Positions 1 through 1,552 of a stretch of DNA of 64,000 nucleotides are shown one piece after another. The stretch lies in assembly GCF_057098645.1 (NCBI RefSeq), contig NZ_CM169472.1, one strand, 5' to 3'. The notes beneath the pieces are model-generated. The model ran no database searches. It was not told the DNA's origin and worked only from the letters and a program-made list of their open reading frames with translations. Position 1 is the stretch's first letter, and the number at the start of each line of letters is the position of its first letter. Made by a program: the position numbers and the translations under genes.

Positions 1-225
1 GACAGACAAAAATAAGATGAATGAGTTTTCTATAAACTTATACTTAATAATTAGAAGTTACATATCATCAGCTGTGTATCGCAACACGATTTCCAGTGTT
101 TTTCTAATCACATCAGCTTTGAGAATATCACTTGTTGTTTCCAGGGAGTGTATCAGACTTAAGATAATATTTTTATTATTAACATTATCGCCTGAAAGCA
201 TTAAATTGGTGACAGCCTGCCCTAA

Positions 226-1421
226 GGAAGGTGCGAATAAGCAGGTCATTTCTTCCCAAGCTGACTCGTTGATTAAAATTTCGCGGATCTGGGCCGATTT
301 TTTTCCCGCAAACACATCGAATCAGCCTATTTAGGCTATTTTTTCCACCATTTCTGGCGTTATTTCCGGTTTTTACTGAGATCTCTCCCACTGACGTATC
401 ATTTGGTCCACCCGAAACAGGTTGGCCAGGGTGAATAACATCGCCAGTTGGTTATCGTTTTTCAGCAGCCCCTTGTATCTGGCTTTCACGAAGCCGAACT
501 GCCGCTTGATGATGCGAAACGGGTGCTCCACCCTGGCACGGATGCTGGCTTTCATGTATTCGATGTTGATGGCCGTTTTGTTCTTGCGCGGATGCTGCTT
601 CAAGGTTTTTACCTTGCCGGGACGCTCGGCGATCAGCCAGTCCACATCCACCTCGGCCAGCTCCTCGCGCTGTGGCGCTCCTTGGTAGCCGGCATCGGCT
701 GAGACAAATTGCTCCTCTCCATGAAGCAGATTACCCAGCTGATTGAGGTCATGCTCGTTGGCCGCGGTGGTGACTAGGCTGTGGGTCAGGCCACTCTTGG
801 CATCGACACCAATGTGGGCCTTCATGCCAAAGTGCCACTGATTGCCTTTCTTGGTCTGATGCATCTCCGGATCGCGTTGCTGCTCTTTGTTCTTGGTAGA
901 GCTGGGTGCCTCAATGATGGTGGCATCCACCAAAGTGCCTTGGGTCATCATGACGCCTGCTTCGGCCAGCCAGCGATTGATGGTCTTGAACAATTGACGG
1001 GCCAGTTGATGCTGCTCGAGCAGGTGGCGGAAATTCATGATGGTGGTGCGATCCGGCAGGGCGCTATCCAGAGATAATCGGGCAAACAGGCGCATGGAGG
1101 CGATTTCGTACAGGGCATCTTCCATGGCACCGTCGCTCAGGTTGTACCAATGCTGCATGCAGTGAATACGCAGCATGGTCTCCAGCGGATAGGGCCGTCG
1201 GCCATTGCCCGCCTTGGGATAAAACGGCTCGATGACAGCGGTCATATTCTGCCATGGCAGAATCTGCTCCATGCGGGAGAGGAAAATCTCTTTTCGGGTC
1301 TGACGGCGCTTAGTGCTGAATTCACTATCGGCGAAGGTGAGTTGATGGCTCATGATGTCCCTCTGGGATGCGCTCCGGATGAATATGATGATCTCATATC
1401 AGGAACTTGTTCGCACCTTCC
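226..1421 (-). mobile_element. IS5-family insertion sequence, copy 1 (1196 bp)
   Basis: Ends GGAAGGTGCGAATAAG ... CTTGTTCGCACCTTCC (inverted), flanked by 4-bp CTAA direct repeats at 222-225 and 1422-1425; identical to copy 2. Confidence 0.9.
373..1353 (-). CDS. insH: IS5 transposase (InsH-like, 326 aa)
   Basis: ORF track protein nearly identical to K-12 InsH as recalled. Confidence 0.9.
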
Positions 1422-1552
1422 CTAACACAGCTGACTCTTCTTCTAACAAATTACCCGAACTGCGAAAGTAACTTGCTAACGCTTTATCAGTTATTGCATT
1501 ATGAATTGTAGTATCTTCAAGCATGGTAACCTCTCATCTTACTTATGAAATT

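Follow-up and report, generated by a model that had tools for sequence, protein, structure and literature searches.

An ISKpn26-type insertion sequence interrupts ariR in the ycgZ operon of an Escherichia coli chromosome

The ariR (ymgB) gene is interrupted by a complete insertion sequence of the IS5 family, identified by its sequence as ISKpn26, in the Escherichia coli chromosome represented by contig NZ_CM169472.1 of RefSeq assembly GCF_057098645.1. The region analysed, called the window below, is a stretch of 64,000 nucleotides, and all positions refer to it. The explanation we favor overall, to which we assign a probability of about three in four, is that ISKpn26 transposed into ariR, that AriR was lost, and that the insertion is partially polar on the downstream gene ymgC. 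The resulting allele is an ordinary loss-of-function allele, made by a known and widespread insertion sequence in a recurrent or preferred target, and is not a new kind of element. It leaves current understanding unchanged.

Structure of the interrupted gene

The features that make up the insertion and the two parts of ariR are as follows.

226-1421, minus strand: insertion sequence, IS5 family, ISKpn26-type, 1196 bp, with 16-bp inverted repeats and a 4-bp duplication, transposase co-directional with ariR
222-225, no strand: target-site duplication, copy 1, CTAA (TTAG on the ariR strand), direct copy
1422-1425, no strand: target-site duplication, copy 2, CTAA, direct copy
373..1353, minus strand: transposase gene, 326 aa, DDE type, recognized by Pfam, by NCBIfam and by comparison with K-12 InsH1
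58..225, minus strand: ariR 3' fragment, codons 34-88 and stop, including one copy of the duplication; joins in frame to 1425-1524
1399..1524, minus strand: ariR 5' fragment, its frame now ending within the element; 35 native residues followed by KVRTSS, 41 aa in all

The terminal inverted repeats, GGAAGGTGCGAATAAG and GGAAGGTGCGAACAAG, match at 15 of 16 bases, and CTAA on both sides is a 4-bp duplication of the YTAR form that is characteristic of the IS5 family. Removal of the element together with one CTAA restores a 267-nt open reading frame whose product is identical to K-12 AriR (b1166) at 88 of 88 residues; the three base changes relative to K-12 are all synonymous. The rebuilt gene also has the other attributes of AriR/YmgB, namely a length of 88 aa, the YmgB domain, and a position after ymgA in the ycgZ operon, with gene order as in K-12. 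The duplicated TTAG occupies ariR nt 100-103, that is, codon 34 and the first base of codon 35. Because the element is complete, is bordered by a target duplication, and separates two exactly matching gene halves, the insertion is a bona fide transposition product and not a chance arrangement. A previous sequence-only reading of the window had described ariR as broken after codon 33 by IS5, between positions 58 and 1524. The break itself is borne out, these two positions are exactly the stop and the start of ariR, and the codon is right to within the duplication, the break falling at codon 34/35.

It is extremely improbable that an assembler placed a repeat copy into a gene that is intact in the cell. 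Repeat-driven joins are conceivable in this window, which contains a second identical copy of the element as well as a large synteny break by way of repeated islands. The exact configuration is also rare: junction searches found both window junctions together in 0 of 5,426 complete E. coli genomes, and an exact scan of 100,044 GTDB species-representative genomes for the left junction returned 0 matches. However, assemblers do not invent an exact 4-bp duplication at both junctions along with a precise meeting of the gene halves, and the same junction has been assembled independently in many other genomes.

Identity of the element

Aligned to IS5A of K-12 MG1655, the element is identical in 1095 of 1198 columns (91.4%) and differs slightly in length (1196 vs 1195 bp). 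The encoded transposase is much closer, with 320 of 325 residues (98%) identical to K-12 InsH1. It matches the Pfam models DDE_Tnp_1 (123 bits) and DUF772 (75 bits) and the NCBIfam model transpos_IS5_4 (367 bits, cut-off 140), and this exact protein is named ISKpn26 family transposase in public protein records. Over its full 1196 bp the element is 100% identical to plasmid copies annotated as ISKpn26 in CP082484.1 and CP058064.1, and copies at least 99% identical to it occur in 3,683 plasmid records, mostly from Klebsiella. The transposase reading frame lies at element positions 69-1049, the same as in the reference table for ISKpn26, which lists a length of 1196 bp and a 326-aa reading frame at 69-1049 (PMC8796155). 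Judged by these comparisons, the element is ISKpn26 and falls outside canonical K-12 IS5. The name IS5 that had been applied to it earlier is right for the family, but as a designation of canonical IS5 it fails on the DNA identity, and the length, the reading frame and the plasmid copies all indicate ISKpn26.

Products of the interrupted gene

Full-length AriR can no longer be produced in this strain. Translation from the native ariR start would give the 41-aa junction product, which has no Pfam match. The YmgB domain (Pfam PF10798) lies almost wholly downstream of the break, with the 3' fragment matching positions 6-59 of 59, and the crystallised YmgB construct (PDB 2OXL) comprises residues 25-88. 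Since both the domain and the crystallised fragment are almost entirely past the break, the junction product is predicted to lack a folded YmgB domain and to be non-functional.

A second reading frame leads out of the end of the element into ariR.

58..315, minus strand: open frame obtained mechanically, 30 element-encoded residues followed by AriR residues 34-88

An internal ATG at 249 would shorten the element-encoded part, giving 8 + 55 aa. If an AriR with its N-terminus replaced in this way (30 or 8 element residues, then 34-88) were translated and partly active, the disruption would fall short of a null. The frame from 315 to 58 is indeed open, its product scores 85 bits against Pfam YmgB (cut-off 22.3) and keeps 54 of 59 domain positions, and the construct that folded and crystallised begins at residue 25. 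In addition, an analogous 81-aa 'YmgB/AriR' is annotated by the NCBI pipeline for insertions at ariR nt 46. We nevertheless judge an active product of this kind to be quite improbable. Inspection of the sequence found no credible ribosome-binding site ahead of either start codon, the exact 85-aa sequence was not found in a collection of 15 billion proteins, and residues 25-33 of the structured region are gone.

Among the products of the operon in K-12, YmgB/AriR has the main part in activating the Rcs phosphorelay; it binds the kinase domain of RcsC and, by way of RprA, causes CsgD and curli to fall and colanic acid to rise (PMC3509220; PMC6900184). [quoted passage not shown] These expectations are extrapolated from K-12 to a strain whose locus is about 2% different and carries another bluF allele. 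Read with that proviso, they lend support to the earlier proposal that the output of the BluF/BluR pathway is altered, AriR being the main link between the operon and the Rcs phosphorelay.

Neighboring genes

The remaining parts of the BluF/BluR - ycgZ-ymgABC module that fall in the window (bluR, bluF, the control region, ycgZ and ymgA) are all present and open.

1553..1825, minus strand: ymgA, 90 aa, intact, three substitutions relative to K-12
1868..2104, minus strand: ycgZ, 78 aa, intact, two substitutions relative to K-12
2105..2417, no strand: divergent ycgZ / bluF control region, 313 bp, the K-12 length, 300 of 313 positions identical (96%)
2418..3683, plus strand: bluF, 421-aa allele with K403N and an 18-residue tail; BLUF and EAL domains found
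3823..4554, plus strand: bluR, 243 aa, intact, one substitution relative to K-12

All four genes had been described as intact in the sequence-only reading. This stands for ycgZ and ymgA, which are full length, and for bluR; bluF is open but is the 421-aa allele and not the 403-aa form of K-12. The difference arises in a run of A residues (bluF segment 3610-3683) that is one base shorter than in K-12 at the last codon. We considered a sequencing error and rejected it, as the exact 421-aa protein is widespread, being found on at least 1000 public contigs, 5.7-Mb chromosomes included. On the strength of these matches, the 421-aa form is a common natural allele.

Transcription across the element

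Whether ymgC is still expressed depends on sites within and next to the element.

1..57, minus strand: first 57 nt of the ariR-ymgC spacer, identical to K-12 downstream of the ariR stop; ymgC lies beyond the window edge
324-346, plus strand: small hairpin AGCCTATTTAGGCT followed by ATTTTTTCC, in the element; terminator-like only for entry from the transposase-stop end
1376..1416, minus strand: putative transposase promoter, -35 GTGCGA inside the inverted repeat, 17-nt spacer, -10 GATCAT, as defined for IS5

The ycgZ operon is transcribed as a single polycistronic mRNA (PMC3509220), and a simple consensus scan of the coding strand of the K-12 ariR-ymgC spacer found no promoter-like or terminator-like site, so ymgC should depend on transcription that crosses the element. 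The transposase gene shares the minus strand with ariR, ymgA and ycgZ, which makes the element co-oriented with the operon. On the operon strand a consensus scan, which is weak evidence, gave one weak terminator-like match, at 728..710 inside the transposase reading frame. RNA folding, also weak evidence, placed no U-tract after the hairpin at the exit end of the element on this strand; the T-run there is on the opposite strand only. This hairpin, at 324-346, is terminator-like in one direction only, and the polarity of the element is accordingly predicted to be greater in one orientation than in the other.

Two insertions of IS5 in K-12 offer an analogy. The host promoter PnmpC reads into a co-oriented ins5A at nmpC (PMC11677980), and at fucAO a promoter at the start of ins5A transcribes the whole of IS5 and then the downstream operon with a loss of about 15% (PMC11894529). 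The -35 and -10 elements of ins5A have been defined for IS5 (PMC11894529), and both hexamers and their spacing are conserved between IS5 and the element in ariR. By this analogy, drawn from an element with which the ariR copy shares only 91.4% DNA identity, transcripts from the ycgZ promoter would most likely run into the transposase gene and, at least in part, reach the ariR remnant and ymgC. This copy of the transposase gene may, on the same grounds, be transcribed from the BluR-controlled ycgZ promoter.

We think it probable that polarity on ymgC is partial and not complete. It is rather doubtful, though well short of far-fetched, that the insertion is a fully polar knock-out in which transcription from the ycgZ promoter is blocked by the element, AriR and YmgC are both lost, and only YcgZ and YmgA stay under BluR control. 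Complete polarity would agree with the dependence of ymgC, as part of one mRNA and with no promoter-like site in the K-12 spacer, on transcripts from upstream. About 430 nt past the transposase stop would be untranslated, so that Rho-dependent termination could make the insertion strongly polar; the weak hairpin at 728..710 is on the operon strand, and terminator-like sequences within IS5 figure in older reports cited in the discussion of PMC11677980. Set against this are the passage of about 85% of transcription through the whole of a co-oriented IS5 at fucAO, the reading of PnmpC into ins5A, and the folding result, in which the operon strand showed no U-tract hairpin close to the exit end. 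Partial polarity is also at odds with the sequence-only reading, in which ymgC was probably cut off from the ycgZ promoter; co-orientation, the lack of a convincing terminator on the operon strand and the read-through literature on IS5 give that proposal no support. The same reading had allowed for an outward promoter in the element that restores downstream expression. By analogy, the IS5 literature comes close to this, but the source there is read-through from the transposase-start end and not a separate outward promoter.

Recurrence of insertions in ariR

Of 5,426 complete E. coli genomes, ten have an IS5-family element inside ariR, always at one of three TTAG sites, and 23 have one somewhere between ymgC and bluF; both figures are raw counts of carrier genomes and not of independent insertion events. 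ISKpn26-type elements occupy ariR nt 100-103 not only in the window but also in at least five further backgrounds, in one of them facing the other way. The carriers include B27 and 1332KP, in which the element has the same orientation as in the window and differs from it by 2 and 9 bases, respectively (99.2-99.8% identical where measured), GCA_010994105.2, and BY63 and BY68, in which the orientation is reversed. The TTAG at ariR nt 46 is occupied in 2017.06.04CC, VTB97432v and J6, and that at nt 79 in PM7 and Z226-5/6, which carry true IS5. The copy at ariR nt 46-49 in J6 is an IS5 that is itself interrupted by the IS4-family element ISVsa5, making a nested insertion of 2533 bp.

The co-oriented carriers at nt 100-103 fall into at least five flank haplotype groups. 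Between the window and all other co-oriented carriers, 53-81 of about 4000 flanking positions differ, and among the differences are SNPs only 7 and 13 bp from the ariR junction. Such differences so close to the junction indicate that the insertions are independent. The alleles at the same site in B27, 1332KP, GCA_010994105.2 and BY63/BY68 are set apart from that of the window by flanks that diverge by 1.3-2% and by a 403-aa BluF. We also considered descent of the window, B27 and 1332KP from one shared insertion, followed by deletion. This was rejected, as 53-64 of about 4000 flank positions differ, including the two SNPs at 7 and 13 bp.

In B27 and 1332KP the element is bordered beyond its far end by ycgH (B27) or pdeG (1332KP) instead of ariR, and the tetranucleotide on the far side is CTAA in B27, a coincidental match to the ariR site, and TTAG, which does not match, in 1332KP. 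These flanks and tetranucleotides imply that ymgC was lost through deletions of about 3.7-6 kb mediated by the element. In addition, bluR contains an internal stop in B27, and 1332KP has IS1 in both ymgA and bluF, which suggests that the whole BluF/BluR pathway is decaying in these two strains.

Among public assemblies, 46 blocks (33 contigs counted) contain the exact 41-aa junction product, which means that the same junction exists elsewhere. It is, in fact, already in public genomes, annotated as a pseudogene. Hundreds of draft contigs, Shigella flexneri included, encode a 'partial' AriR that ends at residues 31-49 at a contig end, and one N-terminal AriR fragment protein continues into foreign sequence after residue 42. 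It appears that ariR is broken by repeats in many more assemblies, and probably by other elements too. A search of the literature for ariR/ymgB together with IS5 yielded a single relevant result, a K-12 clone evolved under benzoate for which 'an insertion in ariR' is reported with no further specification (bioRxiv 10.1101/063271). The main text of a 2026 TraDIS/evolution paper reports many IS5 events, none of them in ariR.

Target preference and selection

YTAR sites in DNA that is AT-rich, destabilised and bound by H-NS have been described as hotspots for IS5 (PMC5493358). The G+C content of ariR is 35.6%, vs 50.2% for the window, and the gene contains seven YTAR sites; three of its four TTAGs are used. 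We propose that ariR nt 100-103 is an AT-rich YTAR target that IS5-family elements prefer and that has been struck repeatedly in unrelated strains.

Recurrence could instead reflect selection for loss of AriR, for example because relief of Rcs activation restores curli and biofilm or under organic-acid stress, with no transposition hotspot involved. At least six independent insertions at one site, the use of three sites within 58 nt, and the occurrence of both orientations are all compatible with selection. So is the gain of the ariR insertion by the benzoate-evolved clone, and the bluR stop of B27 and the IS1 copies of 1332KP suggest decay of a whole pathway. We regard selection as unlikely to be the explanation, although it may contribute. 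No more than 10 of 5,426 complete genomes are carriers, and only TTAG sites are used while the rest of ariR is untouched, which points to target preference. Moreover, ycgZ, bluF, ymgC and intergenic DNA are also struck, a pattern in keeping with a region that is AT-rich and dispensable and that tolerates insertions.

To a more speculative idea we give a small chance. The TTAGs at ariR nt 46, 79 and 100-103 might constitute a natural, convergent switch point at which IS5-family elements repeatedly uncouple the BluF/BluR light and cold sensor from Rcs. The ycgZ promoter is under the influence of BluR (blue light), low temperature, sigma-S and MarA; in co-oriented alleles it would drive the transposase as well, and transposition of ISKpn26 would then be responsive to light, temperature or stress.

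Other rearrangements in the window

The second ISKpn26 copy (50750-51945, plus strand) matches the one in ariR at 100% identity and is flanked by CTAA at 50746-50749 and 51946-51949. It splits uidC, the gene for a glucuronide uptake porin; with ISKpn26 taken out, the rebuilt gene encodes a protein of 421 aa that scores 860 bits against the NCBIfam model UidC.

Synteny with K-12 is broken at about 14400-31000. After phoQ comes a satellite-like island with capsid, terminase and RepA-helicase genes, IS21-type istA/istB (24615-27033) and an IS110-type transposase gene (28130-29326). Past the island are an integrase gene and then pntBA, rstAB, tus, fumC, a gene for a class I fumarase (fumB in the annotation of the best-matching genome), manA and uidC; in K-12 the segment from pntBA to uidC is about 0.48 Mb away. 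Closely similar islands adjoin phoQ in RM10809-3 and lie inside tqsA in PE164. The break fits either inversion of DNA across the terminus, with two paralogous islands as its end points, or a join made in assembly via the repeat.

Implications

The main connector of the blue-light and cold sensor to the Rcs-RprA-CsgD biofilm circuit is probably missing in this strain, and its biofilm, colanic-acid and acid-resistance behavior may depart from what would be expected for K-12. For annotation, ariR is best recorded as a pseudogene that ISKpn26 divides in two, and a frameshift flag on bluF would be wrong. On a small scale, the locus illustrates how IS5-family elements insert in nature repeatedly and at specific sites, and natural alleles with the element at the same ariR site in both orientations could be used to gauge how the polarity of such elements depends on orientation.

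Comparison with known insertions

The element in ariR resembles IS5 of K-12 (IS5A/insH1) in its family, its 16-bp ends, its 4-bp YTAR duplication and its ins5A -35/-10 hexamers. The two part company over the last 160 bp or so, where the element diverges noticeably from IS5; in IS5, this region is credited with enhancer-like effects on some neighboring promoters. The closest functional models are the IS5 insertions at nmpC and fucAO studied by the Saier laboratory, in which, as in ariR, the transposase is co-oriented with the host promoter. Read-through was shown experimentally in those K-12 cases, whereas for ISKpn26 behind the BluR-controlled ycgZ promoter we only infer it.

As a target, ariR is reminiscent of the IS5 hotspot in nfsB, a CTAA at nt 38-41 (PMC5493358). 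Each gene is a small AT-rich frame with one CTAA/TTAG, located in its 5' part, that is struck repeatedly. Recurrence in ariR was seen in natural isolates and not under a defined selection. The best-known insertion of ISKpn26 is that in mgrB of Klebsiella pneumoniae. The target here is instead a chromosomal gene of E. coli, ariR, and no antibiotic-resistance phenotype is implied, but the two cases have in common the simple inactivation of a small regulatory gene.
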